Assembly (NCBI GenBank): GCA_016176415.1
Contig: JACOXH010000003.1
Location: 12,419-76,418 of the forward strand
Source: Candidatus Daviesbacteria bacterium
Lineage (GTDB): Bacteria; Patescibacteriota; Microgenomatia; Daviesbacterales; UBA10151
Direction of reading: 5' to 3'
DNA: 64,000 nt
Part shown: in pieces, positions 2,238 through 59,738 of the stretch
Layout of the letters: each line of letters starts with the position of its first letter
Position numbering within the stretch: position 1 is the stretch's first letter
Made by a program: the position numbers and the translations under genes
The notes under the pieces: generated by a model
What the model was told of the DNA's origin: nothing
Databases searched by the model: none
Seen by the model: the letters and a program-made list of their open reading frames with translations, nothing else

Positions 2238-3121
2238 ATAATTTAATGCGGTACAAAACTTTATATTTTATTCTGTCTTTGCTAATTATTCTGCCGGGCC
2301 TTTATTATTTGGTAACTTCAGGAGTGAAGCTGGGAATAGATTTTACAGGTGGGGCATTGCTTGAATATCAGTTTGAAAAAAGCATAAATTCAGATGAGTT
2401 AAAAAAAGAGATATCAAATAGGGGTATTGAAGTAGGTCAGGTTACTTCTTCATCTGAGAATACTTATATTATCAGAACAAAACCTATGGAGCAGGAGAAG
2501 ATAGGTAAATTAAAGTCTGATCTTAGTGAAAAATTTGGCAAGATAGAGGAGAGAAGAATAGAATTTGTAGGGCCTGTGATCGGTTCAGAATTAAGACAAA
2601 AAGCAGTAATTGGTATTGTGCTGGCCTCAATAGTGATAGTTTTGTATATTGCTTACTCTTTCAGAAAAATACCCAGACCTCAATCATCATGGCGTTTTGG
2701 GGTAGCAGCTGTACTGGCTTTAGTTCATGATATTTTGGTAGTGGCAGGAGCTTTTGCAATTTTAGGGCATTTTGCAGGAGTAGAAGTTGATACTTTGTTT
2801 GTAACAGCGCTTTTAACAATAATTGGTTTTTCTGTTCATGACACAATTGTGGTGTTTGACAGAATCAGGGAGAATTTGACAAAACACATAGGCAGGAAAT
2901 TCGTGGATGTAGCAAATCTTTCTATAGTTCAAACTATTGGCAGATCTTTAAACACGTCCTTAACCGTAGTATTTGTACTTCTTGCCCTGCTTTTATTTGG
3001 AGGAGAAAGCTTAAGGTGGTTTGTGGTGGCTTTGCTTGTAGGTATCGTTTCGGGAACTTATTCTTCAATTTTTAACGCCACAGCAATGCTTGTCTGGTGG
3101 GAAGAGCGGTTGGGTCATTAA
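2234..3121 (+). CDS. secF: Protein-export membrane protein SecF
   Basis: 'GIDFTGGALLEYQF' and C-terminal 6-TM region with 'FDRIREN' typical of SecF. Start overlaps upstream stop. Confidence 0.85.
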   Translation: MNNLMRYKTLYFILSLLIILPGLYYLVTSGVKLGIDFTGGALLEYQFEKSINSDELKKEISNRGIEVGQVTSSSENTYIIRTKPMEQEKIGKLKSDLSEKFGKIEERRIEFVGPVIGSELRQKAVIGIVLASIVIVLYIAYSFRKIPRPQSSWRFGVAAVLALVHDILVVAGAFAILGHFAGVEVDTLFVTALLTIIGFSVHDTIVVFDRIRENLTKHIGRKFVDVANLSIVQTIGRSLNTSLTVVFVLLALLLFGGESLRWFVVALLVGIVSGTYSSIFNATAMLVWWEERLGH

Positions 3122-4539
3122 GCGAGCTCTTTTATTCTGTTTAATAAGTAATCTTTATTGTTTTTTTCAGCGTTTTCTAAAACTTCTTCAAAAAGTTTTT
3201 GTAAAATTTCACCAATTTTAGGACCGGATTTAATATTTAATACCTCCATTATATCATTACCGTTTACTTTTAAATCTGAAATAGAAAATGGTTTTTGTAA
3301 AACCTGTTTAATTCTTTCATTGAATTTTTCCATTCTCCAAGAGACCGCTCTTTGTGTGCCTCCCCCCAGTCTGTCACCTATTCTCACTGCCATCATATCC
3401 TCAATATTTTCCAGCCCCACGTTATTAATAAAACGCCTGATGGCAGAATCAGTTTGATTTTCATCTACTGTAAAAAGATGCCATCTGACTAATTTGTATA
3501 ATTTATCAGTTTGTTTTTTGGATAAATTAAATCTTTGGGCAATTTGTAAAACTAACCTTCCTCCGTAAACATCATGGTTGTAAAAGGTAACATTGCCATC
3601 GCTTTCAGTTTTGACAGTTTGCACTTTGCCGATATCGTGTAAAAGTGCAGCTAATCTGACTAGGGAATTTTTTGATGGAGTATGCTGTAAAGTCATCAGA
3701 GAGTGTTCTCCTATATCGTAAACTCTGTCATGCTTGGGTCCTTGCTGCACAATACCAAAACATCTTTCCAGCTCAGGTAAAATAATTTGCAATATTCCTG
3801 CCTCCCTTAATTTGTTGATACCCTCAAGAGGGTTCTCAGCTGATAAAATTTTAAATAACTCATTTCTTACCCTTTCTTTTGCAATTTCCTCAATAAGTCC
3901 TGCATTTTCTTTTATTGCTTCAAAAGTTTTAATTTCTATCTCAAACTTTAATTGAGTAGCAATCCTTATTGCTCTTATCAACCTTAAGGCATCTTCTTTA
4001 AACCGATCATTGGGATTTCCAACAGTGCGAATGATTTTATCATGTATGTCTTTTTCTCCATGATAAGGATCTATGAGAGTCAAGTCGCTAGAATCTAGAG
4101 TCAAAGAGTTTATTTTCCTAGACTCTTGACTCTTGACTCTTGACTCTATACCCAAAGCAATAGCATTAATAGTAAAATCCCGTCTGGCTAAATCCTCTTC
4201 AATTTTATCAGTCCAGCCAACCTGGGCAGGGTGACGGAAATCTTTATAGTCACCCTCCTTCCTCATGGTAGTGACTTCGAAAACTTCCACCTCGGGGGAG
4301 TCAAAGCCCACCCCCGAGGTGTTCTTCGTCGGTATTCCCACAGTGCCGAATTTATTGTCGTAAAAGCCTTCAGGGATAATTTTTAAAATTTCCTCTGGTT
4401 TGGCATCAGTAGTAAAGTCCCAGTCGTTAACTTCTTTACCCATTAAAATGTCTCTGACTGCCCCTCCGACAATGTAAATTTGAAAACCGGCTTTTTGAAA
4501 CTTATTTAAAATATCTTCTACTTCTTTAGGTAAGTGCAT
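3118..4539 (-). CDS. cca: CCA-adding tRNA nucleotidyltransferase / poly(A) polymerase family with HD domain
   Basis: N-terminal 'IYIVGGAVRDILMG...DWDFTT' is the pol-beta nucleotidyltransferase head. C-terminal 'LAALLHDIGK' is the HD domain. Contains in-frame repeat insertions (see repeats). Confidence 0.75.
   Translation of the reverse strand: MHLPKEVEDILNKFQKAGFQIYIVGGAVRDILMGKEVNDWDFTTDAKPEEILKIIPEGFYDNKFGTVGIPTKNTSGVGFDSPEVEVFEVTTMRKEGDYKDFRHPAQVGWTDKIEEDLARRDFTINAIALGIESRVKSQESRKINSLTLDSSDLTLIDPYHGEKDIHDKIIRTVGNPNDRFKEDALRLIRAIRIATQLKFEIEIKTFEAIKENAGLIEEIAKERVRNELFKILSAENPLEGINKLREAGILQIILPELERCFGIVQQGPKHDRVYDIGEHSLMTLQHTPSKNSLVRLAALLHDIGKVQTVKTESDGNVTFYNHDVYGGRLVLQIAQRFNLSKKQTDKLYKLVRWHLFTVDENQTDSAIRRFINNVGLENIEDMMAVRIGDRLGGGTQRAVSWRMEKFNERIKQVLQKPFSISDLKVNGNDIMEVLNIKSGPKIGEILQKLFEEVLENAEKNNKDYLLNRIKELA
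4078..4147. repeat. Low-complexity insertion inside cca: inverted 'gagtcaag/cttgactc' plus 4 tandem heptamers 'gactctt'
   Basis: Direct reading: 4121-4147 gactcttgactcttgactcttgactct. Translates in-frame as 'ESRVKSQESRK'. Confidence 0.6.
4284..4321. repeat. REP-like hairpin copy (CCACCTCGGGGG-AGTCAAAGCCCA-CCCCCGAGGTG) inserted in-frame in cca
   Basis: Perfect 11-bp inverted repeat with 12-nt loop. Shares core CCACCCCCGAGGTG with the IS200-like element ends at 59000/59716. Confidence 0.7.
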
Positions 4540-4605
4540 ATATTTATGGATCCCATAACGAGTATGGGATGACAGTTACACTGTCATTTTACCCCGTAGC
4601 TGTCT

Positions 4606-6282
4606 ATGATACAATGCAGCTTGCAAAGGAAACTAAAAGTGAAGTGGAGAATACTGCCAAAAAAGTCAGATAGTTTAACAGAGCAGCTTTTGATAAACCG
4701 CGGTATAAAGAGCGAAAAGGAAATAAAACAATTTTTTAACCCCAGGATTTCAGATTTTGAAAAAGATTTACAAATCCCCGGTACTTCAAAAGCGCATAAA
4801 AGAATTCTGGAGGCAATAAAAAAAGAGGAACTGATAGCAGTGTATGGAGATTATGATGTAGACGGGATTTGCGCCTCGGCAATTTTGTATAAGGGTTTAA
4901 CATCAATTGGGGCAAAAGTCCTACCGTATATTCCTCACAGAGATAAAGAAGGGTATGGACTTTCTGTTACCGGACTTGATTCCATTAAACTGTCAGGCGC
5001 AAAGTTGGTAATTACTGTAGATAACGGGATTGTAGCAGTAGAACAGGCAAAATATGCTAAAAGTTTAGGACTGGATTTAATTATTACAGATCATCATATC
5101 CCGGGTGATCAGGAGCCTGATGCTTATGCAATAGTTCATTCAACAAAAATGTGTGGGGCCTCTGTGGCATGGTGTTTAACCCGTGACCTTATTAAAGAAG
5201 ATTTATCAGAGGAGCTTTTACAATTTGCAGCCATAGCTACAGTTTGTGATCTTTTGCCTTTGGTGGGTTTAGGCAGGGGATTCGTCACAGAAGGTCTTAA
5301 GGTTTTAAGAAGCACCACTAATCCCGGGATATTGGCACTTTTGAATGAAGCGGGTGTATCGGTTGGAAATATCAGCTCTTTTGAAATAGGTTTTATACTA
5401 GGTCCAAGACTTAATGCTATGGGCAGAATGGAGCATGCCATAGATTCTCTGCGTCTGCTTTGCACCAAAGATCCGGTTAAGGCAAGAAGTTTGGCAAAGC
5501 TTTTGTGTAATACCAACGCCAGTCGTCAAAAATTAACAACAGAGGCTTTGGAAGAAGCTAAAGAGATGGTTAAAAAAGACAGCAAAATTCATATTTTATA
5601 CTCAAAAAACTGGTCAGCAGGAATCATAGGACTCGTGGCAGGGAGGGTTTGTGAAGAATACTCGCTACCTGCAATTGCCATTTCAGTAGGGGAAGAAATT
5701 TCCAAAGGTTCGGCCCGTTCTGTTGACGGTATCAATATTGTGGAAGTAATCAGGAAGCATGCTGATATTTTAATTGATGTAGGAGGACACAAAGGGGCAG
5801 CAGGATTTTCTATTTTAAGCAAACATTTAGAAACTTTTAAAAAAAGATTAGAGCAGATAGTTTTGACAGTGCCGGAAGAGAAGGTTTTGGAAATTGATGC
5901 TGAGGTTTATAGCAGTCAGTTAAATAAAACTTTAATAAAAGAGCTGGAGAAATTTGAGCCTTTTGGACTGGATAACAGAAGGCCTGTGTTTGTTTCATTT
6001 AACATGAAAGTATCAGATATCAGAACTGTGGGGAATGGAAAACATTTGAAATTTAAAATTTCTTCCTGTCATTCTGAGCACATTTGCTTCGCTCAGTGTA
6101 AACTCCGCGAAGAATCTAATTATATTGATGCTATAGCATTTGGCATGGGAGAGTGGGAAAAGCTGCTTAAGACAGGACAGATGATAGATTTAGCTTTCAA
6201 TATAGAACTTGATACTTATGGTGGATTTGAAAAAGTGCAATTAAAAGTTAAGGACTTGAGAGTGGGGCAGTTTGGAGTGTAG
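4606..6282 (+). CDS. recJ: Single-stranded-DNA-specific exonuclease RecJ
   Basis: DHH motifs 'VYGDYDVDGI' and 'ITDHHIPG'. DHHA1-like C-terminal region. Confidence 0.85.
   Translation: MIQCSLQRKLKVKWRILPKKSDSLTEQLLINRGIKSEKEIKQFFNPRISDFEKDLQIPGTSKAHKRILEAIKKEELIAVYGDYDVDGICASAILYKGLTSIGAKVLPYIPHRDKEGYGLSVTGLDSIKLSGAKLVITVDNGIVAVEQAKYAKSLGLDLIITDHHIPGDQEPDAYAIVHSTKMCGASVAWCLTRDLIKEDLSEELLQFAAIATVCDLLPLVGLGRGFVTEGLKVLRSTTNPGILALLNEAGVSVGNISSFEIGFILGPRLNAMGRMEHAIDSLRLLCTKDPVKARSLAKLLCNTNASRQKLTTEALEEAKEMVKKDSKIHILYSKNWSAGIIGLVAGRVCEEYSLPAIAISVGEEISKGSARSVDGINIVEVIRKHADILIDVGGHKGAAGFSILSKHLETFKKRLEQIVLTVPEEKVLEIDAEVYSSQLNKTLIKELEKFEPFGLDNRRPVFVSFNMKVSDIRTVGNGKHLKFKISSCHSEHICFAQCKLREESNYIDAIAFGMGEWEKLLKTGQMIDLAFNIELDTYGGFEKVQLKVKDLRVGQFGV
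6067..6117. repeat. Family-2 short repeat copy (TGTCATTCTGAGC-[insert]-GCGAAGAATCT) in-frame inside recJ
   Basis: Flanks identical to copy at 49731-49756. Contains hairpin CTGAGC...CGCTCAG. Encodes 'SCHSEHICFAQCKLREESN'. Confidence 0.6.
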
Positions 6283-7923
6283 TATGACAGTTTGTGCAAA
6301 AGCTGCTTCTTCAGGAGTTTGTGAAGACGCTGCTCTTTTGGGTAATCGCAGATCTAAAATAAGCGGACGGGGAGTTGAAAGCATTTCGTCGCAGGCGAGC
6401 GCTAAATCGTAGCAGGTACGCACCGTCCTTCCTTCTATGCCGTAAGTTGCCCCTAAAGCCGGAAAGTCAGGGTTTGTAAGGTCAGTTAACGAAGAATCAA
6501 CTCCAAATTCTCTGATCATGCCGTAGCCGCAGTCATTGTAGATTACTATTTTAACAGGTAGTTGGTATTGCATTATTGTGCCTAATTCCTGTATATTCAT
6601 CTGGAAGCCTCCGTCTCCCATTATCGCTATAATTCTTCTATCCGGAGAAGCAATTTGTGCACCTATGGCAGCCGGTAGAGCAAAGCCCATTGTTCCCATG
6701 CCTCCTGTGGTAATAAAGCTGCCGGGTCGTCTGAATCTGCCATACCGCGCAACTGACATTTGATGTGAGCCGGCATCGGATACAATGGTGTCGGTATCCA
6801 AAGTGTTTTCAAAAAGTAAGTTGGTTGCATCAGTTATTGTCAGATCATTATCTCCGGCTAACATTTTTCTGGTTTCCGTCATCGAAGAACTGTCGCTAAT
6901 ATAATTATCGAGCGGTTTTTCTATTGCCTGTTCTGCAAGGACAGGGAGTGCCAGTGCTAAATCTGCTCTGATCGTTAATCTGTCTCCCCTTCTTCTGTTA
7001 AGTCGGTTTGAGTCAATATCAATACGGATAATATCAGCCAGTCTGGTAGAATCAAGAATTTTTCCACTGACCCGATCGTCAAATTTCATACCAAGAGCTA
7101 AAATTACATCAGCTTCCTGCGCCAGTAAATTTGCTACCGGTCGTCCGTGTGTTCCTATCATGCCGACAAACAAAGGATGGTCAGAAGGTAAAGCAGATAA
7201 TCCATGAAGTGTGCTGGCTACACGAATTTGAGTTTTTTCAGTAAGCCTCCTAAGGTCAGAGACAGCTCCGGATAATAAGACTCCCTGACCTGTAATAATT
7301 AAAGGATTTTGGGCGTCATGCAGTATTTGGGCTGCTTCTTTCAGTTGTGCGTGTATTTCAGGAGTAAGTTCCGGTTTATCTGCTTTGGGAGGTATTTCTT
7401 TTTCAGGGAATAAAGTTTCGTGTATCTGCAGATCTTTTGGTATATCAATAAGTACCGGTCCCGGACGGCCATTGGTTGCAATTGTAAAAGCTTTATCCAA
7501 AACATAGGGAATTTCTTCCGGAATTTTAATCTGATAGCTCCATTTTGTGATATGACCTGACATTTCTACAATAGGAGCTTCCTGAAATGCTTCAGTTCCA
7601 AGTAACGATGTTGGTACCTGACCACAGATTACAATGATAGGTGTTGAGTCCCATTGTGCATCGGCAATTGCTGTTAGAGTATTAATTGCACCAGGACCTG
7701 AAGTTACCAATCCTACCCCCACTTTTCTTGCTTCTCGGGCATACCCTGAAAGGGCATGACCAAGTCCCTGCTCATGGCGGAATAAAAAACGATTTATCCT
7801 GTTGGATATCAAAGCCTCGCAGATAGGCAAATTTGCTGCTCCGGGTATCAGAAAAACATCTTTTATGTCGTGTTCCTTAAGAGTGTTTACTAAAGCTTCG
7901 GCTCCCGTTAGAGTGCGCCCCAA
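6241..7923 (-). CDS. Thiamine-pyrophosphate-dependent enzyme, acetolactate synthase large-subunit family
   Basis: N-terminal TPP-enzyme pyrimidine-binding domain 'GHALSGYAREARKVGVGLVTSGPGAINT'. C-terminal TPP-binding 'IMGDGGFQMNIQEL'. Confidence 0.75.
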   Translation of the reverse strand: MGRTLTGAEALVNTLKEHDIKDVFLIPGAANLPICEALISNRINRFLFRHEQGLGHALSGYAREARKVGVGLVTSGPGAINTLTAIADAQWDSTPIIVICGQVPTSLLGTEAFQEAPIVEMSGHITKWSYQIKIPEEIPYVLDKAFTIATNGRPGPVLIDIPKDLQIHETLFPEKEIPPKADKPELTPEIHAQLKEAAQILHDAQNPLIITGQGVLLSGAVSDLRRLTEKTQIRVASTLHGLSALPSDHPLFVGMIGTHGRPVANLLAQEADVILALGMKFDDRVSGKILDSTRLADIIRIDIDSNRLNRRRGDRLTIRADLALALPVLAEQAIEKPLDNYISDSSSMTETRKMLAGDNDLTITDATNLLFENTLDTDTIVSDAGSHQMSVARYGRFRRPGSFITTGGMGTMGFALPAAIGAQIASPDRRIIAIMGDGGFQMNIQELGTIMQYQLPVKIVIYNDCGYGMIREFGVDSSLTDLTNPDFPALGATYGIEGRTVRTCYDLALACDEMLSTPRPLILDLRLPKRAASSQTPEEAAFAQTVILHSKLPHSQVLNF

Positions 7924-10148: not shown

Positions 10149-11492
10149 ATGGAGAGAACATTAATTTTAGACTGTAATGAGAAAATTGATCAAACAGTAC
10201 ATATTTGTGGTTTTGTGCAAGTCAGGCGCGATCACGGAAAAATTGTATTTTTAGACATAGCTGACAGATCTGCTGTTATTCAGGTGGTAATATCGTCAGA
10301 TGCAATCCACCTCGAAGGAGTCAAAGCCCACCTTCGAGGTGATATTAGGCCGCAGGATGTTGTCTGTATAACAGGAAAAGTTAATAAACGCCCCGAACAC
10401 TTAATAAATAAAAATATCCCTACAGGCGGTATTGAGATTTTTGCTGAGAGTATTGAAGTTTTGTCAAAAGCATCAGAATTACCTTTTGACATGGGCGGAA
10501 AGGATCTGGATCTGCAGCTTCCCACTTTGCTGGATTACCGTTCTTTAACTTTGCGTCACCCAAAAATAAAATCAATTTTTAAAGTGCAGTCTGCAATTTT
10601 AGAAGGTTTTAGAAAAGCAGTAAAAGAGATTGGGTGTACTGAAATTGTAGTGCCCACTATTGTGGCAGGTTCTACAGAAGGAGGGGCAGAAGTGTTTAAA
10701 GTAGATTATTTTGAACACAAAGCATATTTATCCCAAAGCCCGCAACTTTATAAACAAATGTTGATACCGGTATTGGAAAGAGTGTTTACCATTGCCAAAG
10801 CATACAGAGCAGAACCTTCAGTCACAACCAGACATTTAACAGAGGTAACTCAAATGGATGTGGAAATTGGATTTACCAACTTTGAGGAACTATTGGATAT
10901 TTTGGAAAATACTGCCACAAATATGTTGGAGTTTTGCCAAAAAGAATGCGAAGATATTTTATCTGAATTTGGAGTGGAAAAAATTAGTATTGGAAAAATT
11001 CCCAGACTTACTTTAAGAGAAGCACAAGAGTTAATTTTAAAAGAGTTTGGCCGTGACAACAGAAAAGAGAAAGATTTAACACCGCAAGATGAAATTGATC
11101 TTTGTAAGTGGGCCAAAGAAAAACACGACAGTGATTTTGTGACGGTGACTCATTTTCCAACTAATGCCAAGCCTTTTTATACTATGCCTGACCCCAAAAA
11201 TCCTGAATATTCTCTAAGTTATGATTTGCTTTTCAGGGGGGTTGAGGTAATGAGTGGTAGTCAAAGGATTAATGATTATGGGCAGCTGGTAGATTCTATT
11301 AAAGGAAGGGGCATGGATCCGGATAGTTTTGAGATGTATCTTCAGGCTTTTAAATACGGCATGCCTCCTGAAGGAGGATTTTCTTTCGGTTTGGAAAGAG
11401 TAACAATGCATGTATTAAATCTTGCTAATATCAGAGAAGCTTCACTTTTTCCCAGAGATATGGAAAGAGTAGATACTAGATTAAGTAAGTGA
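10149..11492 (+). CDS. aspS: Class IIb aspartyl/asparaginyl-tRNA synthetase (archaeal/type-2 AspRS-like)
   Basis: N-terminal OB anticodon-binding domain. Class II motifs 'FRAE', 'GGFSFGLERV', C-terminal 'FPRD'. Size ~447 aa fits type-2 AspRS/AsnRS. Confidence 0.75.
   Translation: MERTLILDCNEKIDQTVHICGFVQVRRDHGKIVFLDIADRSAVIQVVISSDAIHLEGVKAHLRGDIRPQDVVCITGKVNKRPEHLINKNIPTGGIEIFAESIEVLSKASELPFDMGGKDLDLQLPTLLDYRSLTLRHPKIKSIFKVQSAILEGFRKAVKEIGCTEIVVPTIVAGSTEGGAEVFKVDYFEHKAYLSQSPQLYKQMLIPVLERVFTIAKAYRAEPSVTTRHLTEVTQMDVEIGFTNFEELLDILENTATNMLEFCQKECEDILSEFGVEKISIGKIPRLTLREAQELILKEFGRDNRKEKDLTPQDEIDLCKWAKEKHDSDFVTVTHFPTNAKPFYTMPDPKNPEYSLSYDLLFRGVEVMSGSQRINDYGQLVDSIKGRGMDPDSFEMYLQAFKYGMPPEGGFSFGLERVTMHVLNLANIREASLFPRDMERVDTRLSK
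10307..10341. repeat. REP-like hairpin copy (CCACCTCGAAGG-AGTCAAAGCCCA-CCTTCGAGGTG) in-frame in aspS
   Basis: Same loop and outer stem as 4284-4321 copy. Inner stem GGGG/CCCC replaced by AAGG/CCTT (compensatory). Confidence 0.7.
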
Positions 11493-13488: not shown

Positions 13489-14802
13489 ATGAAAATAAAA
13501 ACAAGATTTGCTCCCTCTCCAACAGGCATGATGCATATCGGAGGAGTGAGAACTGCTCTATACGCCTGTCTGGTTGCCAGAAAAAATGGCGGGATGTTTT
13601 CCTTAAGAATAGAAGATACTGACAGATACAGGTTTGTGCCTGAAGCTCAGGAAGACATAATTGCCGGTCTTAAATGGCTGGGGTTGGAATTTGACGGAGA
13701 ACCTATTATTCAGTCAGAAAGAAAAGATTTGTATCAGAAATATGCAAAAGAATTAGTGGATAAAGGTTTGGCTTACGAGAGTGACGGGGCTGTCTGGTTT
13801 AAGATGCCAAAAGAGGGAGAGGTTAGGTTTAAGGATTTAATCGGTGAAAGGGAAGTGGTTTTTAATTTGGCAGATCAAAAGGATTTTGTACTTTTAAAAT
13901 CTGACGGTTTTCCCACATATCATCTGGCTCATGTGGTTGATGATCATTTGATGGAAACAAATCCGGTAATCAGGGGAGATGAGTGGCTGCCTTCAATTCC
14001 AAAACATATTTTAACTTTTAAAGCCTTTGATTGGGAGATTCCCTCTTATGCTCATCTGCCTTTGATTGTGGGAACTGACAGAGCAAAACTTTCCAAAAGA
14101 CACGGGGCCAAATCAGTGGGAGAATTCAGAAAAGACGGATTTTTGCCTGAAGCAATTTTAAATTACATGGCGCTTTTGGGCTGGACCCCACCAAATGATA
14201 AAGAAATTTTAAGTTTTGAAGAGATGGTGAAATTATTTGATTTAAAAGATGTGCACTGGGCTCCTGCTGTTTTTGATGTTACAAAACTGGAATGGATGAA
14301 TGGGGAGTATATCAGGAAATCTCAAAACTCAAATCTCAAAACTCAAATCTCAAATTATTTAAAAGATTTGTCAGGGGGAGCTTTGGAGCATCCTACAGAA
14401 GAAGAAATTGAGAAAGTAGTTCCTTTAGTTAAAGAAAGAATTAAAAAATTATCTGATTTTGTGCCTTTAACAGACTTTTTATGGGAAAAGCCGGAATATG
14501 ATCAGTCTCAATTTAAAAAATTAAATATTAAAAATGAAAAAGAAGTACTGGAAAAGGTTTTGGAAAAACTGGAAGAGATGGAAAAACCATGGGATGCTAA
14601 AATATTTGAAGAGACTTTCAGAAAACTGGCTGAGGATTTAGAGTTATCAGCTTCTCAGATGTTTCAGCTGATCAGAGTATCGGTTTCAGGACAAACTGTA
14701 ACTCCACCGCTTTTTGAAAGCATACAAATTTTAGGGGAAGAAGAAACTAAAATCAGGATAAGAGATGCTGTAGAGTTTGTGAAAAATTCCCCCGTTGCAT
14801 AG
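13489..14802 (+). CDS. gltX: Glutamate--tRNA ligase
   Basis: 'FAPSPTGMMHIGGVRTALY' (HIGH) and 'KLSKRHG' (KMSKS). Likely start MKIKTRF at 13489 (track ORF begins 13414). Confidence 0.85.
   Translation: MKIKTRFAPSPTGMMHIGGVRTALYACLVARKNGGMFSLRIEDTDRYRFVPEAQEDIIAGLKWLGLEFDGEPIIQSERKDLYQKYAKELVDKGLAYESDGAVWFKMPKEGEVRFKDLIGEREVVFNLADQKDFVLLKSDGFPTYHLAHVVDDHLMETNPVIRGDEWLPSIPKHILTFKAFDWEIPSYAHLPLIVGTDRAKLSKRHGAKSVGEFRKDGFLPEAILNYMALLGWTPPNDKEILSFEEMVKLFDLKDVHWAPAVFDVTKLEWMNGEYIRKSQNSNLKTQISNYLKDLSGGALEHPTEEEIEKVVPLVKERIKKLSDFVPLTDFLWEKPEYDQSQFKKLNIKNEKEVLEKVLEKLEEMEKPWDAKIFEETFRKLAEDLELSASQMFQLIRVSVSGQTVTPPLFESIQILGEEETKIRIRDAVEFVKNSPVA
14320..14356. repeat. 2.6 tandem copies of 14-mer TCTCAAAACTCAAA inside gltX
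   Basis: Seen directly. Translates 'KSQNSNLKTQISN'. Confidence 0.6.
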
Positions 14803-15216: not shown

Positions 15217-15287
15217 TGCGGGATCATCTAACGGTAGGATACATGCCTCTGGAGCATGGCATCTTGGTTCAAATCCAAGTCCCGCAA
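15217..15287 (+). tRNA. tRNA-Gln (anticodon CUG)
   Basis: Manual fold: acceptor TGCGGGA/TCCCGCA, D-loop with GG, anticodon stem CATGC/GCATG with loop CTCTGGA (U33, anticodon CTG), T-arm CTTGG-TTCAAAT-CCAAG, discriminator A. CCA not encoded. Confidence 0.75.
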
Positions 15288-51373: not shown

Positions 51374-51410
51374 TATCACACCTCGGAGGTGTGATAGAGG
51401 TGTGATAAAA
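51374..51410. repeat. REP-like palindrome TATCACACCTCGGAGGTGTGATA plus partial direct repeat (intergenic)
   Basis: Perfect 23-nt palindrome containing CACCTCGG/CCGAGGTG core. Confidence 0.6.
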
Positions 51411-51722
51411 AGCAAGATGGAAAATAAACAAATAGTAAGGTATGCTGAAAGTATGTTGGGATTTACATTAAAAAGATTTTTAATTACTTTAGGGGCAAGT
51501 GTAGGGGTATGGATTATATCTGCTATTATTCAGGCGTACTTAACTTTTGGGAAATATATAGGCACATTTTCAAGCGGTTGTCAGGTGACTGGATATCCAA
51601 TAGATGTGTGCGCATTAAGAGGTCCAGATATTCCTGCAATTTTAATCATTATTATTAATATCGTTTTTTGGTTTTGGGTTTTACATTTTATATTTAATTT
51701 GTTTAACAAACGCGCTAAATAA
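51402..51722 (+). CDS. Small membrane protein
   Basis: 106 aa, 3 TM. Confidence 0.3.
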   Translation: MIKSKMENKQIVRYAESMLGFTLKRFLITLGASVGVWIISAIIQAYLTFGKYIGTFSSGCQVTGYPIDVCALRGPDIPAILIIIINIVFWFWVLHFIFNLFNKRAK

Positions 51723-54644
51723 ACTAAAAGAAGCAAAAGATGCTACGCTCCCTGAAACTATAAGCAGCCCTCCAAGAATTTCTTTATAAGAATAACCAGT
51801 ATTTTGGTTTATTGATAATTGTTTTTGTTGATCTAGAAATCCCTCTTTATTTATCTGATCAGAAATTTCATCAGGGTTTTTAAAAGTAATTCCCAAAATA
51901 TCAGATTGAGAAAGTATAGAATCAGGAGATTGGTTTGTTTTACTGCCAATGTTCACCCCGGAGGTGTTAACCTGGTTACTGCTTGCGCCCACCTCCGGGG
52001 TGGTGCTGATGGAAGATGGTGCCGGAGTAGGTGATAGAGCAATTTGAATAGTAAAGGTTTGAGGGATTTCCTCATTTCCTAATTTGTCTATTGCCTTAAT
52101 TTGTAATGTAGTAGTACCGGGAGTTGAGATGGTAAAAGGTTCTGAATAAGTTTGAACAGTTTGGCCGTTATCTAAACTGTATTCAATTTTTAATATTCCT
52201 GCTTCTGTATCGCTGGCAGTTAGAGTAATGGTAACGGGTCCTGTATAAATACCTGAAGAGTTTTTAGTACCGGAGATTTGTATAGAAGTAGAAGGAGGGG
52301 TTTGATCTGTAGCTGCAGAACCGGTTACTTCACTGGTAGAAATAATAGTGGTGGTAGTTGAGCCCTGATAAAGATTTAGAGAAGGAGAGGTATCTAAAGA
52401 TGGATCAAGGTCAAATTCTATTTTATCTGCAAAAGAAATACTCAGATCTTTATAAAGAGTAGTTTTGGAGATTTTATCTTCTCTGTAAGTTCTTTTTTTA
52501 AGATTGGTAGTTTTAGAGCTGTTTGAAGGGTTTTTCCGGGTAGCTTTAACTTTTACTTTGGAAGCTTTCTTTTTTACAAAAGCATGTTTGGTATTACCGG
52601 AAGTAGTACAAGTTACGTCAGGAATATTTTCTTCGATTTCGCCATTATCATTTAATCCACAGTGGCGGTTTTGATCGTCATATAAATCAAGTTCTCCGTC
52701 ATCCAAAGTTAATTGCTCGCCTTCCAAACTTATTTTTTCGCTCTTAACCTGAACAGGAATAGCTAAATTATCATCATTTAAGATTCCTCTTACAGCTGCC
52801 ATTGCAGGACCGCTGCTATTAACAAGATCACTGTGCTTTTGTTCTACATAGTAAATTTGAGAAGCTCCGGAAATATCTAAAGAATCATTTTTTAAAGAAG
52901 CGCTATAAAGGGGGACAGTGCCGTCACCGTTAATAAAAATTTCATCTCTTTTTGTAATGAGATTAATTGGCCATGTGATCCACCAAGTTTCGTGAATTTG
53001 TCCTAAGGTAGGTTGTGATGTGCCAACTATTTCATATGCAATAACACCATTTGCTTGGTTAAGGGTGACATCAAGACTGTGAAATTGTTCTGCGATCCCA
53101 AAAGTAGTCATGTTGTAATTAAGATTTGTTAAAAGTGTTTTTATCTGATTAAAATTTAGGGAACCTGTAACGTTGTTATTATCAATATCGCGATCATCTT
53201 TAAAAGGATATAATATTTCATTCCTTGAGTTATCATAAAAATCAAAGTATTTGTTTGACGGTAAAAGTTGAAAAGCGCTCGAAAAATTTTGGAAAAGATC
53301 TTTAACTTCTGATGATGGAATACCGAGATAAAAATCTCCCAATATTTGCCTACCTAGAGGCTTGCCATACATCAGAGCTTTTGTAGCATCTACTGCTCCC
53401 AAATGGGGAACACCTAGTTCAATTAATTTATTTACCTTTGTAGCCTTTGAAGAATCTGAAATATAATACCTGGCTACTAAACCGCCCATGGAGTGAACAA
53501 CTAAATTTACCTGTGATTGTCCGGAGGCAATCCTGGCTGATTCTATTAAAGCATCTAAGCTGTCTTTTGTGCTTCTGACATCTTTTCTCCAGTCGTATGG
53601 AAAAACAAAAAAGTTTGTGCCCTTGTTATATCCCATTTCAGCAAAAAAGGAATCAATTTGCGAATAACCATCAGAAACTAAAGCTCCTGTTAAAGATAAA
53701 TCTGCTTCTGAAGTTACCCCATCAGATTTTAATTTCAATACATCAAAATAATCATCATTACCCAAGGCAGCTGCCTCATTTGTGTTAACCCAAATTTTTT
53801 CATCAGCTGTATATGCATGAGAATATGTTCCCCCGTGTCCATTATCAGCAGACCACACAATATCTTGAGTAGCTTTCATTTCTGATCCACCAATTCCGGG
53901 GATAAAAATTACAGGAAGTCTGGGCGGAGATGGTGGAGGAGAGTTGTTGTTTAAAACAAAGTATAAATCATTTTTATAGTAACCAAAAATATTACAACCA
54001 AAACTTGCAGTTTGTGAGTTCCAAATATAAGAGGAGGCATTACACACTCCATTATCAAAAGCATATCTGACTCCTCCTCCGGTGAAATAATCATTAGAGG
54101 TGCCGCTATAATTTGCAGTAGCAAGCTTCATTCTTTTGCCTCCCCATTGAGCTGCATTTGCATTTGTTAAAAGAATTAAATATCTGTGACCGAAAATAAA
54201 TTCATAATTTCTGCAGGAAAAATCTATGGTAACGTCTTCATACCCTGCAGGAACACCTGTAGTGGTAAATGTTAGACCTGTCAGTGGATCTGAGGCATTT
54301 GAGACACAGGGAATAGTGTATGAATTATTGTTGTCTTTATCGTAAATTTTAGTATTTAAACCAGCGAAATCAAACTGATCTATATTTGAAGCAGAAGTTG
54401 AAACCCTGAAAGTAAAATTTTCCAGTGTTCCTGAAAGGTTGTTTCCGAGTTCTTGAATTGCCTGCCAGACATTTAAAGTGGAATCGTATCCTTGTGTTTG
54501 TTCTGCTACAGAAACTGCATAAGATGGATGGGTGAAAGTCACAAAAACTCCTCCCAAAAGGGCAAACCCGAAAATTAGGGCAATTGGCAGTTTTTGATTC
54601 ACTTTTACTAAAATGATTGTTGATCGTGAAAAAGGGAAGCGCAA
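51681..54644 (-). CDS. Large (987 aa) secreted alpha/beta-hydrolase (lipase/PGAP1-like GxSxG 'VHSMGG') with C-terminal Ig-like domain and hydrophobic anchor
   Basis: N-terminal signal/TM, 'VIFIPGIGGSE', 'LVVHSMGGLVARYY', Thr/Ser-rich linker, beta-rich domain, C-terminal hydrophobic + basic tail. Confidence 0.55.
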   Translation of the reverse strand: MRFPFSRSTIILVKVNQKLPIALIFGFALLGGVFVTFTHPSYAVSVAEQTQGYDSTLNVWQAIQELGNNLSGTLENFTFRVSTSASNIDQFDFAGLNTKIYDKDNNNSYTIPCVSNASDPLTGLTFTTTGVPAGYEDVTIDFSCRNYEFIFGHRYLILLTNANAAQWGGKRMKLATANYSGTSNDYFTGGGVRYAFDNGVCNASSYIWNSQTASFGCNIFGYYKNDLYFVLNNNSPPPSPPRLPVIFIPGIGGSEMKATQDIVWSADNGHGGTYSHAYTADEKIWVNTNEAAALGNDDYFDVLKLKSDGVTSEADLSLTGALVSDGYSQIDSFFAEMGYNKGTNFFVFPYDWRKDVRSTKDSLDALIESARIASGQSQVNLVVHSMGGLVARYYISDSSKATKVNKLIELGVPHLGAVDATKALMYGKPLGRQILGDFYLGIPSSEVKDLFQNFSSAFQLLPSNKYFDFYDNSRNEILYPFKDDRDIDNNNVTGSLNFNQIKTLLTNLNYNMTTFGIAEQFHSLDVTLNQANGVIAYEIVGTSQPTLGQIHETWWITWPINLITKRDEIFINGDGTVPLYSASLKNDSLDISGASQIYYVEQKHSDLVNSSGPAMAAVRGILNDDNLAIPVQVKSEKISLEGEQLTLDDGELDLYDDQNRHCGLNDNGEIEENIPDVTCTTSGNTKHAFVKKKASKVKVKATRKNPSNSSKTTNLKKRTYREDKISKTTLYKDLSISFADKIEFDLDPSLDTSPSLNLYQGSTTTTIISTSEVTGSAATDQTPPSTSIQISGTKNSSGIYTGPVTITLTASDTEAGILKIEYSLDNGQTVQTYSEPFTISTPGTTTLQIKAIDKLGNEEIPQTFTIQIALSPTPAPSSISTTPEVGASSNQVNTSGVNIGSKTNQSPDSILSQSDILGITFKNPDEISDQINKEGFLDQQKQLSINQNTGYSYKEILGGLLIVSGSVASFASFSLFSAFVKQIKYKM
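51954..52002. repeat. REP-like inverted repeat CACCCCGGAGGTG ...23 nt... CACCTCCGGGGTG inside the 987-aa hydrolase gene (in-frame)
   Basis: 13-bp arms are exact reverse complements. Confidence 0.6.
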
Positions 54645-54769
54645 GAGAGATTAAAGGTGATTTAAAGTAACAAACAAATACACAGGCCCACCTGGAAGGT
54701 GAGCTTTGGCTCCTTCCAGGTGAACGGGAAGTCTTGCAAAAGAGGTTTGGGAAGTGATATAAAAGGGCA

Positions 54770-55541: not shown

Positions 55542-55982
55542 ATGAAATGCCCCTTTTGCAACAGTACTTTAAGTAAGGTTATCGATAAAAGGTCAGTGGA
55601 AAAACGCGGCCAAATCAGAAGAAGGAGAGAGTGTTTAAAGTGTTTTAAACGCTACACTACTTATGAGATGTGCGCACAGCTGGAAATTTTAGTTATCAAA
55701 AAAGACGGCAGCAAACAACCATATATAAGAGAAAAACTGGAAGTTGGGTTGACGAAAGCTTTGGAAAAAAGGCCGGGGATTGACAAGGTTTGCATACTGC
55801 TTGATAGAATAGAAAGCCGGATCAGGACACGGGGACTAAGTGAGGTTGCCTCGCAAATGTTGGGTAAGTGGGTCTTGTCGGAACTTAAAAAGTTGGACCC
55901 GGTTGCCTATTTGCGTTTTGCCAGCGTCTACCGGACTTTTTCTGACCCGAAAGACTTTAAAAAAGAATTGGAGACATTATGA
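55542..55982 (+). CDS. nrdR: Transcriptional repressor NrdR
   Basis: Zn-ribbon 'MKCPFCNSTLSKVIDKR...RRRECLKC' plus ATP-cone. Confidence 0.85.
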   Translation: MKCPFCNSTLSKVIDKRSVEKRGQIRRRRECLKCFKRYTTYEMCAQLEILVIKKDGSKQPYIREKLEVGLTKALEKRPGIDKVCILLDRIESRIRTRGLSEVASQMLGKWVLSELKKLDPVAYLRFASVYRTFSDPKDFKKELETL

Positions 55983-58555
55983 AAAAAACAAAAGCCACAT
56001 TACAAGTTGTAACAGCGCCAAGAATCCAAAGAGGCAAGAAAACTAATGGTCAGGTCAAGCCCAATGGTTTGGATCATAACAGCAGGACTTTTGAAACAAG
56101 GTTTATTCCCCGCTACAAAACTATTCCTCAGATGCCAGAGGGTTTGCCTGAACCTACTTTTTCTGAATCCTCCAATAAGATTTTATCTGAAAGATATCTT
56201 TTAAAGGGTGGCAATTTAGAAGTGGTAGAAAGCGTGGCTGAAAGATTTTGGCACATTGCTTATGATATTGCCTCCGGTGACTTTGACTTTAAAGTTTCTC
56301 AAAGCCAGGTTTTTGATATGGCCAAAGATTTTTATACCATGATGGTCAAACAGGAATTTTTACCCAATTCTCCTACAATCATGAATGCCGGTAAGCAAAA
56401 CGGTTTGCAGTATTCTGCCTGTTTTGTGTTGCCTGTTGGGGATTCTTTGCCGGAAATTTTTGATACCGTAAAGTATGCAGCCTTAATTCATCAAACAGGA
56501 GGAGGCACAGGTTTTTCTTTTTCCCGTCTTCGTTCTGCAGGCTCAATTGTTAACACAACCGGCGGCGTGGCTTCCGGGCCAGTTTCATTTTTACGGGTTT
56601 TTAATGCAGCCACTGAATCAATAAAGCAGGGGGGTACCAGAAGGGGGGCTAATATGGGTATTTTAAGAATAGACCACCCTGATGTTTTGGAATTTATCCG
56701 CTGTAAAGCAGAACTGGACGATTTAAACAAGCCAGTATACGAGAGAATTGCCCCGCTTTTATCTTCTGATGAAGCCAGGGATTTTGTAAAAACTTTGCTT
56801 TTGGACAAGCAAATATCCAATTTTAATATTTCTGTGGCTATAACTAATAAATTTATGGAAGCTTTGGCAAAGGAAGAAGATTATGAACTGATCAGTCCTC
56901 ATGATGGCAGCGTGGTTGGTAAATTAAATTCAAAAGAGGTATTTGATGAAATAGTGGAGAGGGCATGGAAAACAGGCGATCCTGGTTTGATTTTTATTGA
57001 CAGGATTAACAACTCCCCTGCCAATCCTGTACCTGGTTTAGAGCATATTGAAGCCACAAATCCATGTGGCGAACAGCCACTTGCACCTTGGGATGCCTGT
57101 AATTTGGGTTCTATAAATTTAGGAAAATTTGTGCTGGCAGACGGGATGGATGTGGACTGGGAAAAGTTAAGACAAATAACCCGTCAGGCTGTGCGCTTTT
57201 TGGATAATGTGGTACAAGCAAATCCTTTTACTCTAAAACAAATTTATGATCAAGTGCATAAAAACAGAAGGATTGGCTTAGGAGTAATGGGGTTTGCTGA
57301 TATGCTTTTTAAGTTAAAAATCCCTTACAACTCTGATGCTGCTTTGGAACTGGCTGCCAGAATAATGAAGTTTATTAATGAAGAAGGACACAAAAAATCA
57401 GAAGAGTTGGCTGAAGAAAAAGGCGCTTTTCCTAACTGGATTCACTCTATTTATGCCAAAGGCAACCCAATCAGAAATTCCACTATCACCACCATTGCTC
57501 CCACAGGTACTATTTCCATTATCGGTGATTGTTCTTCAGGGATTGAGCCTGTATTTGCTTTAGCTTACATCCACAGAGCCAAAGCTAAGGGTGACCAGTA
57601 CAGGACTTTAACTATTGCCAATCAGACATTTACAGATATTGCCAAAAGGGAAAGTTTTTATTCAGACGACCTGGCAGCTAAAGTATTGGAGCATGGTTCA
57701 GTCAGCGGGGTTGACGGCGTTCCCCAGGAATGGCAAAAGGTGTTTGTGACAGCTCCTGAAATTGATCCTGTTTGGCACGTTAAGATGCAGGCGGCTTTTC
57801 AACAATTTACTGATAACGGGGTTTCCAAAACCATTAACTTACCAAACAGCGCTACCCGTGACGATGTCAGAGATTCTTATATGCTGGCATGGGAAACAGG
57901 CTGTAATGGCATCACTATTTACCGTGATGGTTCCAAAAGTACTCAAGTATTAAATGTTTCTTCATCTTTGGATAGTCAGGTTGCTCAAGATGATTCGCAA
58001 GCGCCGGTAGCAGAAAGGCCAATGATTTTAAGAGGCAGGACTTATAAAATTTCTACCCCTGTAGGTGAAGCTTTTATTACTGTTAACCGTGATGAGCAGG
58101 ATCAGCCTTTTGAGGTATTCGTAACAGTGGGTCGGGCAGGAATGCACACTATGGCAGATGCAGAAGCCATGGGCAGGTTAGTTTCACTTTCTTTAAGACT
58201 GGCCAGAGGTGCCAAAGAAACAGATCCCAAAGCTGTGGCTTTGAAGATTGTAGACCAGCTCAAAGGAATAGGGGGAGCTTCATATGTGGGATTTGGTAAA
58301 AACAGGGTGATGAGTCTGGCTGACGCTATTGCCAAGGTTTTGGCAGAAGATTTGTCTTTAGGGTCTCAAGGGGAGATAATTGAAACAATACCTTTGAATT
58401 TAACTATGAACGGAAACAGTAATGATCCAGAGCCTTCAAGCTATGGTTCTCACTCCAAAACCAATGCTGATCTTTGTCCTGAATGCGGCAGCGCTTCCTT
58501 TGTAATGGAAGAAGGATGTAAGAAATGTCATAGCTGTGGATACAGCATGTGCTGA
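55979..58555 (+). CDS. nrdJ: Class II (adenosylcobalamin-dependent) ribonucleotide reductase NrdJ with C-terminal Zn-ribbon
   Basis: Active-site '[11 protein letters not shown]', 10-stranded barrel region, C-terminal 'CPECGS...CKKCHSCG'. Confidence 0.85.
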
Positions 58556-58950
58556 CATTTCTTGCGACAGCAGGCTGTCTTAAGAAGTGTCATTCGTGCG
58601 GGTACTCGATGTGTTAACCAAGAATTGGCAGGGGGAAACCTTTCCTTTAGAAACTTAAGGTAAATTTCAATATCTTCTCCGTGATCAAATGCCATTTCTT
58701 CTTTCGCGGGAAGATTGTCTAATTCAAACCATCTTAGCTCCTTTACTTCCCGTTTTACGGCTTGTTCCAGGTTTTCATCTCTGTCAAAAAAACCTCCAAG
58801 CAACGCCCATTTTCCTGATTCAAGAATAGGTTGACCATTCAGAGCCCCCCTTTTGCCTAAAAGTATTTTGCTATCTTTTATTACTATTGCATTAACGGTG
58901 ATATGTTTTGATGAGGCTTTATTTTTATTTTCAAAATGACATGTAATCAT
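58528..58950 (-). CDS. NUDIX-family hydrolase
   Basis: Nudix-box-like 'GGFFDRDENLEQAVKREVKEL'. Confidence 0.5.
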   Translation of the reverse strand: MITCHFENKNKASSKHITVNAIVIKDSKILLGKRGALNGQPILESGKWALLGGFFDRDENLEQAVKREVKELRWFELDNLPAKEEMAFDHGEDIEIYLKFLKERFPPANSWLTHRVPARMTLLKTACCRKKCQHMLYPQL

Positions 58951-58999: not shown

Positions 59000-59738
59000 A
59001 CTTCCACCCCCGAGGTGGAAGTTAGGTGGAAGTTAATCTTCGCCATCTAAGAGCTGGTGTTTAATTAATTCCAATTCCTGCGCATAGCTAATTTGGTCGT
59101 CAGTAAACTTTTTATAATCTGCAACAGATTTAAAAAAATTAAGTATTTCTTCCTTTGTACATACTCCTTTACCATTCAAATATTCATTGTAAGATGACCA
59201 TTCATAATCCTCTGGTTTCTTGGTCAGAAACGAAGAAACAGAATTTAAGTGGATATATCTTGATACATGGACTAATTGTTCGTCAGATTCTATTAAGACA
59301 GCTTTAAATTGTCCCTGCAATAGAGGGCCAACTCTATTAAATTTAGTATTATAAAATTTAGTATAGCTATTGGTAAGCTTGCTAATAAATTCGCTTATAC
59401 CACCTTCTTTCAGTTGTTTTATCAGGAAATGAAAATGGTTAGGCATTAAGCAGTAACAGACGATGTCAACTATTTTTTTATTAGGATCAGGCTCGAATGA
59501 TTTATATTGGATAAAGTTTGAAAATTTCGGTTTAGGCCCTTCTAAGCGATAATAATTAATTGCCTGTAAAAATCGTGTATATGTTCTTCTGTTTTCATAT
59601 ATTCTTCTTTTTTCCACTCCACGGTTGTAAATGTGATAAAACTGACCGTTAATTAAAGGAATAATTCTTGCTGGCATAGATTTAGAATAAATAAAAATTA
59701 CCGAGGTGTCAATACACTTTCACCCCCGAGGTGGAAGT
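59000..59738 (-). mobile_element. IS200/IS605-like element: Y1 HUH transposase flanked by same-orientation subterminal hairpins ACTT(C/T)CACC-CCCGA-GGTGGAAGT
   Basis: Hairpins at 59000-59022 and 59716-59738, gene between. About 740 bp is typical IS200 size. Confidence 0.55.
59033..59677 (-). CDS. tnpA: IS200-like / REP-associated tyrosine (Y1, HUH) transposase
   Basis: HUH motif 'CLMPNHFHFLI' and catalytic Tyr region 'VSRYIHLNSV'. 214 aa (longer than canonical IS200 TnpA, like RAYTs). Confidence 0.7.
   Translation of the reverse strand: MPARIIPLINGQFYHIYNRGVEKRRIYENRRTYTRFLQAINYYRLEGPKPKFSNFIQYKSFEPDPNKKIVDIVCYCLMPNHFHFLIKQLKEGGISEFISKLTNSYTKFYNTKFNRVGPLLQGQFKAVLIESDEQLVHVSRYIHLNSVSSFLTKKPEDYEWSSYNEYLNGKGVCTKEEILNFFKSVADYKKFTDDQISYAQELELIKHQLLDGED

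Follow-up and report, generated by a model that had tools for sequence, protein, structure and literature searches.

A 64-kb stretch of DNA from Candidatus Daviesbacteria (candidate phyla radiation (CPR)/Patescibacteria; G+C ~38%), here called the window, encodes on its minus strand a CCA-adding enzyme whose gene, cca (3118-4539), is a 473-residue open reading frame (ORF) with two in-frame palindromic inserts. One of them, a 34-nt hairpin designated E1, is the subject of this analysis, together with its further copies in the window and a gene, 55 kb from it, for a protein that resembles the REP-associated tyrosine transposases (RAYT). The cca-encoded protein is 100% identical to one Candidatus Daviesbacteria protein, and its best sequence match in the PDB is the Bacillus CCA-adding enzyme 1MIV (E = 8e-42). 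Pfam identifies a PolyA_pol head (residues 21-132), a PolyA_pol_RNAbd neck (199-259), an HD domain (288-359) and a tRNA_NucTran2_2 domain. The class II head motifs GGxVRD, DxD and RRD are present as GGAVRD, DWD and RRDFTINA, all three of which are invariant among the orthologs. Based on these head motifs and the neck, complemented by the HD and C-terminal domains, the product is assigned from its sequence to the class II CCA-adding enzymes (tRNA nucleotidyltransferases).

E1 occupies positions 4288-4321 and is composed of two 11-bp arms, CACCTCGGGGG (4288-4298) and CCCCCGAGGTG (4311-4321), which are 100% complementary and enclose a 12-nt loop (4299-4310) that reads AGTCAAAGCCCA on the plus strand. 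A preliminary description of this DNA had presented a perfect, in-frame hairpin of 38 nt; the perfect pairing and the frame hold, while the measured length is 34 nt, the positions 4284-4287 at the proposed start being unpaired with 4322-4325. The palindrome is read without a frame break as residues N73-V84 of the cca product (NTSGVGFDSPEV), and the peptide given for it previously, GVGFDSPEVEVF, corresponds to residues 76-87. Folded as RNA, E1 reaches -26.4 kcal/mol (z = -3.7). A search of Rfam with the hairpins matched no family, and no terminator-like site was found at 4288-4321. A reading of E1 as a terminator or promoter was rejected for lack of such a site and because the cca locus of the closest relative (L119) does not conserve the U-run that follows the stem.

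The insert had also been placed between the head and the HD domain of the enzyme; instead, E1 lies within the head domain, in the turn that joins the FGTVG strand to the EVTTMR strand. The suggested alignment to CCA-enzyme structures supports this position, as E1 appears as an 11-residue gap in 1MIV, between HGTVVVVHKG and KAYEVTTFK. An AlphaFold2 (AF2) model of the enzyme has a mean pLDDT of 81.5, and its three segments of lowest confidence are residues 74-83, 134-148 and 393-398, the first two of which are the inserts. Here, pLDDT falls below 50 both at 74-83, flanked by beta strands 66-70 and 86-91, and at 134-148, flanked by beta strands 128-131 and 153-156. Since the gaps in 1MIV and the low-confidence segments of the model both fall between strands, the two inserts are regarded as extensions of beta-hairpin turns. 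The E1 turn is taken to be solvent-exposed, and its 11-12 extra residues to be disordered and tolerated.

The second insert (site 2), unrelated to E1, is an imperfect palindrome of 72 nt (4076-4147) built from GAGTC-containing heptamers, with arms at 4076-4107 and 4116-4147 that are 75% complementary. It codes roughly for residues 132-155 (ESRVKSQESRKINSLTLDSSDLTL), corresponds to a 20-residue gap in 1MIV between NAIAMDE and YGTIIDPFGG, and extends the last beta-hairpin turn of the head domain; folded as RNA, it reaches -31.9 kcal/mol (z = -4.0). Tandem Repeats Finder reports GACTCTT in 3.9 copies at 4121-4147, and this array is the homogenized arm of the palindrome. The preliminary description had listed a low-complexity heptamer array at 4078-4147; the array itself is present at 4121-4147, but the label falls short, as the array is part of another in-frame palindromic insertion, located at a hotspot of its own. 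Related GAGTC/GAATC heptamer palindromes occupy site 2 in the orthologs L121/P0008, P0005 and P0037. As a side observation, GAGTC/GACTC is rarer than expected in the window (48 occurrences vs ~84 in mononucleotide shuffles), yet it is concentrated in the site-2 palindrome and also occurs in the 34-nt element, within its loop, the cluster spanning 4076-4306. A 9-mer, GAGTCAAAG, is common to 4098-4106 and 4298-4306, and the loops of longer doublets in two relatives (L083 and L112) are filled with GAGTC-type strings.

In total, 120 Daviesbacteria CCA orthologs with 65-74% identity and lengths of 441-522 residues were compared, and loci of relatives (numbered L, with orthologous proteins numbered P) were obtained from a metagenome scan and exact-protein look-ups. 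The shortest orthologs (441-444 residues) read FGTVGLETNLGIFEITTMRKEG and RRDFTINAIALSxxxxIVDPF at the two positions and have neither insert. The absence of an insert is the base state among the 120 sequences. A homologous peptide in distant orthologs would speak against an insertion; both segments are missing from Bacillus 1MIV and from other non-CPR orthologs, which are as short as the shortest Daviesbacteria sequences. Inserts of at least 3 residues are found at site 1, the position of E1, in 56/120 sequences and at site 2 in 48/120, while any other internal position has such an insert in at most two. At the DNA level, the inserts are palindromes built on CACC-N5-GGTG. The states of site 1 range from empty over a single unit (L094, L097 and L110) and the 34-nt doublet (window, L119, L120 and L091) to doublets of 37-55 nt whose loops differ from it (L083, L085, L093, L112 and L114), and doublets of the same unit are present at site 2 in L084, L094 and L120. 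From lineage to lineage, the peptides inserted at a given site bear no relation to each other. Unrelated palindromes are suggested by peptides alone for VIPxxAGIQ, VIASEAKQS and DSRFRGNDK, and others are confirmed in DNA, among them AAAGGGTCGGACCCT...AGGGTCCGACCCTTT in L114. In that locus, from the genome A3D83, site 2 (L114 10391-10424) carries a perfect 34-nt palindrome unlike the 34-nt element, AAAGGGTCGGACCCTC-TA-GAGGGTCCGACCCTTT, in frame.

The first of these two positions is filled elsewhere in the CPR as well. Site 1 of cca contains GTTTCACGTGAAAC-type units coding for DVSRET/DVPHET repeats in L020 (~7300-7800) and L024, and a perfect 31-nt palindrome in L018. Because these loci carry other palindromes there, the cca hotspot is not confined to Daviesbacteria or to one repeat family. 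A neighbor-joining tree of the 120 orthologs shows a patchy distribution of insert states and is too weak for counting gains and losses. The patchiness extends to other positions: the AspRS (aspartyl-tRNA synthetase) loop described below is empty in 10 of 13 aligned relatives and holds another doublet in L114 and a single palindrome in L094, and L119 and L121 have an insert in the recJ-cca spacer, which is empty in the window and L120. In L119, the spacer doublet is CACCTCCGAGGTG...CACCTCGGAGGTG (3772-3810); the public cca gene call of this locus (3788-5230) starts ~25 codons too early, so that the spacer repeat is read as protein.

E1 is a member of a family that is dispersed over the window. 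With up to one mismatch, CACCTCGGGGG occurs eight times in the window vs 0.22 expected, a number reached by 0/100 shuffles, and perfect hairpins whose stems have 9 bp or more and a G+C content of 60% or higher occur four times vs 0.23 expected in shuffles, a ~17-fold excess. The basic unit has ~13 nt (CACC-N5-GGTG), and the cca copy is an inverted doublet of it, with the 11-bp stem and the 12-nt loop. Seven sites in the window contain the unit, singly or as inverted doublets. The copy E2 (34 nt, 10308-10341) is located in frame in the gene of AspRS (10149-11492, plus strand), in opposite strand sense relative to E1, and is read as HLEGVKAHLRG in an OB-fold loop of this protein; it has the same loop, AGTCAAAGCCCA, while a GG>AA change in the stem is compensated by CC>TT. 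E3 (34 nt, 54689-54722) has the opposite orientation, lies in the spacer between divergent lipase-like and cyclophilin ORFs, and has one compensated C>G change in its stem; it is missing from the orthologous spacer in L115, where one arm-like piece remains. E4 (51954-52002) is a 49-nt doublet with 13-bp arms, CACCCCGGAGGTG and CACCTCCGGGGTG, and a 23-nt spacer, in frame in a 987-residue LCAT/lipase-like ORF (51681-54644, minus strand) whose ortholog in L115 has the 34-nt form in the same region. In addition, a single intergenic unit, CACCTCGGAGGTG, with an extended stem (TATCA.../...TGATA) and a tandem copy of its 3' arm is found at 51374-51407. This hairpin reads TATCACACCTC-G-GAGGTGTGATA followed by GAGGTGTGATA again (x2) and lies just upstream of a small membrane-protein ORF, for which its GAGGTG could double as a ribosome-binding site.

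A covariance model of six distinct copies recovers exactly the known sites in the window and finds further copies in relatives; the three full 34-nt copies of the window (cca, AspRS and spacer) score 55-61 bits. Among the six copies, 4 of 11 stem pairs vary, all of them by double-sided Watson-Crick changes without G-U intermediates and with 100% of cells paired, and the nearly invariant loop is the most conserved part of the element. In 511 kb of Daviesbacteria DNA, CACC-N5-GGTG units number 43 vs 2.1 expected. The unit load is lineage-specific, since several 21-kb Daviesbacteria loci are free of units. Three of the four doublets in the window are inside ORFs, and 32 of the 43 units in the Daviesbacteria loci are inside long ORFs, a count that is biased because the loci were chosen around cca.

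The nucleotide sequence of the element is kept to a far higher degree than that of its hosts. The cca element is identical at 34/34 positions between the window and L119, and the AspRS element at 34/34 positions among the window, L120 and L121, vs ~72% nucleotide identity and ~48% third-position identity for the host genes. The AspRS element is read as HLEGVKAHLRG in the window and L121 and in another frame, as FTSKESKPTFEV, in L120, and in some cca orthologs site 1 yields NTSKESKPTFKV, encoded by the element with a loop that is reversed in orientation. Conservation acts on nucleotides rather than on the peptide, and the varied frames and orientations, together with the intergenic copy, exclude a protein-motif explanation.

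The same unit flanks the RAYT-like gene (59033-59677, minus strand), which is present in one copy in the window and encodes a Y1 (HUH) transposase-like protein of 214 residues (Pfam Y1_Tnp, E = 3e-7). The HUH motif (H81-F-H83) and Tyr141 (in RYIHLN) are invariant in 25 homologs. A sequence search of the PDB with this protein gave no match; the link to E. coli RAYT bound to a REP hairpin (4ER8) comes from a fold search with the AF2 model, in which it is the best match (E = 3e-5, TM 0.44/0.55), followed by the IS608 TnpA 2A6M. Homologs with 60-89% identity are common in Daviesbacteria, each on one or few contigs, and the neighboring CobA/BtuR-like and Lon genes are kept in L115, L116 and L118 and not in L117 (3/4 other genomes). 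Between the two closest genomes, the identity of the RAYT-like gene is 86% vs 77% for cca.

Just 3' of the gene, the hairpin ACTTCCACC-CCCGA-GGTGGAAGT with a repeated arm (59000-59033) contains the unit CACCTCGGGGGTG on the minus strand. The upstream flank has the hairpin ACTTTCACC-CCCGA-GGTGGAAGT (59716-59738) and a half-unit, CCGAGGTGTCAA (59701-59712), an arrangement that is the same in L115-L118. Both flanks can be described as a hairpin (A)CTTCCACC-TCGGG-GGTGGAAG containing the 13-nt unit CACCTCGGGGGTG, which is also part of the cca element; a 17-nt stretch, AACTTCCACCTCGGGGG (4282-4298, plus strand), is identical in the RAYT-flank hairpin and the cca element. The upstream flank continues into TGTATTGACACCTCGG, which contributes a TTGACA -35-like box to the region before the RAYT-like gene; the half-unit CCGAGGTGTCAA overlaps this box. 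This correspondence is repeated in other genomes. In GCA_964551605.1, CACCTCGGGGGTG is found both in the RAYT flanks (L115) and in the cca element (L119), and in CP066688 (L116) the RAYT-flank unit is CACATCGGGAGTG and a doublet in a DeoC-like gene, TACACTCCCGATGTG...CACATCGGGAGTGTA (L116:16479-16520), uses exactly that unit. As further observations on these flanks, the 3' flank in the window has the same hairpin and duplicated-arm layout as the single unit at 51374-51407 (GGTGGAAGTTA x2, 59013-59035), and the RAYT homolog of L020 is flanked by a 33-nt hairpin, AGCCCTTTCGGGGG-TTGAA-CCCCCGAAAGGGCT, similar in style to the site-2 palindrome of L114.

The cca hairpin probably belongs to a family of palindromes, short and rich in G+C, that resembles REP/REPIN elements and is tolerated intragenically in surface loops. 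By analogy with E. coli RAYT/REP and with IS608/ISDra2, the RAYT-like protein would recognize the hairpin in single-stranded DNA and would nick and join beside it, a process by which copies could be made or removed. Selection would leave only those copies that are in frame at permissive turns, in a genome with very little spacer DNA, and the two hotspots would result mainly from selection rather than from targeting; local slippage and template switching would probably add to the turnover after insertion. In-frame survival of the element is made easier because five of its six frames, as read from the sequence, are open. Element states appear to turn over rapidly between relatives. The earlier proposal that the gene tolerates selfish elements is borne out as far as a lineage-restricted, in-frame palindromic insertion in an essential gene is concerned, one that is multi-copy and has its counterpart in the RAYT-like flanks. 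Mobilization of the hairpins by the RAYT-like protein we infer from the analogous systems, and selfish mobility stands on the same conditional footing.

Several observations weigh against a REP/REPIN-like origin. With a closest relative that is ~77% identical (CCA protein), it was not possible to define a transposition event, a target-site signature or a filled/empty pair among near-identical genomes, and the GTAG/CGTC tag (Di Nocera 2013; Quentin 2018) is absent beside the units in cca, AspRS, the spacer and the RAYT flanks. Copies within the genome differ in their stems, an uncommon feature if they were a young REPIN population derived from a single master sequence. The best NCBIfam match of the RAYT-like protein, REP_Tyr_transpos, reaches 50.9 bits at a cutoff of 80, and the two ~40-nt flanks of the gene (hairpin plus TGTATTGACACCTCGG) are direct repeats of each other in the window, L115 and L117. 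A looser match is seen for the A3D83 genome (L114/L117), whose RAYT-flank unit CACCCTTGGGGTG has a central 5 nt unlike that of the intragenic units and only CACC...GGTG in common with them. In L020, from another CPR lineage, the hairpin flanking the RAYT homolog is unrelated to the cca palindromes of that genome; because of this difference, the link between RAYT and unit is not general. No further copy of the GAGTC-heptamer palindrome was found in 1.6 Mb searched outside cca site 2 of the window and L121. Finally, a neutral selfish or decaying insert would not be predicted to stay perfectly identical between orthologous positions of deeply diverged genomes; constraint, repeated re-insertion of a conserved master, or homogenization are possible causes of this identity.

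The identity bears on the leading alternative, that the hairpin, as single-stranded DNA or mRNA, is kept for a host function such as protein binding, replication or nucleoid organization, mRNA stability or translational pausing. Such a function is compatible with a REP origin, and 34 nt that are perfectly conserved across diverged genomes, within genes with ~48% third-position identity, leave room for a role at the level of the host. Stem changes that are only compensatory and a nearly invariant loop point in the same direction, as do the syntenic position of the RAYT-like gene, its conservation above that of cca, and the Shine-Dalgarno/anti-Shine-Dalgarno-like strings GGAGGTG/CACCTCC within the units. 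However, many orthologs of the same essential genes lack the insert, its position, loop, orientation and frame differ between lineages, and copies reside in unrelated genes and a spacer. The hairpins match no Rfam family and have no terminator-like context, and a purely RNA-level constraint is further disfavored by the absence of G-U intermediates, though among six sequences. We regard a host function as possible but unlikely. The REP/REPIN-like reading itself has a more far-reaching version, in which the hairpins, in Daviesbacteria and with other palindromes throughout the CPR, are actively maintained at the nucleotide level, as the identical orthologous copies at saturated synonymous sites, the compensated stems and the invariant loop would suggest, and directed to, or regenerated at, a few sites by the RAYT-like enzyme, as a vertically inherited partnership that remodels beta-hairpin loops of housekeeping proteins; this version is rather doubtful.

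Formation of the palindromes in situ, through template switching, fold-back synthesis and slippage that interconvert unit and inverted doublet in the absence of transposition, would account for the graded series at site 1, from empty over single unit and 34-nt form to longer doublets. Near-palindromic units imply that the units of a doublet are also near-direct repeats, which makes slippage possible (compare the orthologs P0028 and P0057, whose lengths differ by exactly 9 residues), and the arm-like piece kept by L115 at the E3 position, the double-sided nature of all stem changes and the homogenization of one site-2 arm to perfect heptamers are in line with such local events. This mechanism does not explain how one genome came to carry this 12-nt loop with its stems in genes unrelated to each other as well as in a spacer, nor why units are identical with RAYT-like flanks in three genomes, so that as the origin of the family it is improbable. 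That the extra residues give the CCA enzyme a functional loop specific to the CPR, for instance in tRNA handling, with the palindrome as an incidental property, is highly improbable: both host proteins in the window, CCA enzyme and AspRS, bind tRNA and many lineages have inserts in these very loops, but the same DNA yields three unrelated peptides across genes and genomes and has a copy outside genes, the insert peptides are unrelated between lineages, about half of the orthologs have no insert, and AF2 gives no confident structure for the inserts. A chance inverted repeat or an assembly artifact, for which the sole argument is the metagenome-assembled source, can practically be dismissed in view of the shuffle controls and of independent assemblies of other samples (L091, L119 and L120), which show the same element at an identical position. 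A tRNA-minihelix mimic that autoregulates tRNA enzymes was also considered and rejected, on account of the copies in spacers and in the lipase-like gene and of a loop that does not resemble a T-loop.

If the REP/REPIN-like reading is correct, gene-dense, tiny CPR genomes would harbor a family of this type largely inside genes, essential translation genes included, where it lengthens protein loops in frame. Some of the differences in length among housekeeping proteins of the CPR would then have a concrete cause in the DNA, as in the CCA enzymes of 441-522 residues. Annotation and phylogenetic analyses call for caution with such repeat-derived segments, as illustrated by the ortholog whose start codon was mis-set by a spacer copy. 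The hundreds of independent insert states at two loops represent a natural experiment on the persistence of hairpin repeats together with a domesticated transposase, and the same states inform which positions of a protein tolerate insertions. If the conservation does reflect function, the family would bear on whether REPIN-RAYT systems benefit their hosts.

Some further features of the window and its relatives are listed here. The ribonucleotide reductase of the closest relative (L115 11110-14847, 1245 residues) contains an intein (Intein_splicing, LAGLIDADG) that is missing from the ortholog in the window (55979-58555, 858 residues). At the 3' end of the latter gene, an 11-bp A+T-rich inverted repeat, AAGAAATGTCA...TGACATTTCTT (58520-58563), overlaps the end of a NUDIX-like ORF on the opposite strand. 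A tandem AAATCTC(AAAACTC) repeat at 14317-14355 comprises 5.6 copies with a 7-nt period or 2.7 perfect ones with a 14-nt period, and the sole Rfam match in the window is a tRNA at 15217-15287.

In the literature searched, which largely excludes subscription journals, no description of this family or of the loop-hotspot pattern was found for CPR or Daviesbacteria. Several known systems offer points of comparison. In fungal mitochondria, G+C-rich palindromic clusters and double-hairpin elements invade A+T-rich genomes, coding regions included, sometimes in frame; these elements belong to an organelle and are not known to be associated with an HUH transposase, and the likeness is one of analogy only. 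Insertion sequences of the IS200/IS605 group (IS608, ISDra2) share the Y1 HUH fold and have subterminal hairpins that flank the gene in one common orientation. In contrast to these, the RAYT-like gene is apparently single-copy at a conserved position, and the hairpin alone is dispersed rather than the gene. The conserved position in 3/4 other genomes and the restriction of homologs to one or few contigs argue against an active insertion sequence.

Ogata et al. in 2000 reportedly described Rickettsia palindromic elements (RPE) that lie in frame in protein-coding genes. Compared with RPE-1, which has 100-150 bp, occurs in Rickettsiales and is without a known transposase, the element presented here has 34 nt, a CPR host and an unrelated sequence. 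RPEs and intragenic REPs, some of the latter in tRNA synthetase genes, are precedents for the insertions in Daviesbacteria (Di Nocera 2013, PMC3733652). The parallels are in-frame palindromes in housekeeping genes including tRNA synthetases, which add 10-30 residues in presumed loops, single and dimer forms, and genes with two insertions. The intragenic REPs that have been reported differ in carrying GTAG/CGTC tags. The reoccupation of the same two loops across ~100 orthologs, the use of several frames and both orientations, and the 100% conservation of orthologous copies are not described for intragenic REPs or RPEs in the literature searched.

The closest parallel to the whole arrangement is provided by REP/REPIN sequences with their RAYTs (Nunvar 2010, PMC2817692; Bertels & Rainey 2011, PMC3116915; Messing 2012, PMC3479197). 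The Daviesbacteria system departs from these in its direct rather than inverted RAYT flanks and the missing tag, in a 214-residue protein that scores below the NCBIfam RAYT cutoff in a CPR host, and in compensated stem changes among the copies of one genome, with the loop as the most conserved part. Furthermore, most of the Daviesbacteria copies are inside ORFs and in frame, whereas REPs are characteristically extragenic. What it has in common with REP/REPIN is the short G+C-rich palindromic unit, dispersed over the genome either alone or paired in inverted doublets, which fold into a longer hairpin. In addition, as in REP/REPIN-RAYT systems, a Y1/HUH transposase-like gene lies between copies of the same unit, a gene that is conserved and, judged by its synteny, may be inherited vertically, and the genome-specific unit matches the RAYT flanks of that very genome in the window, L115 and L116.

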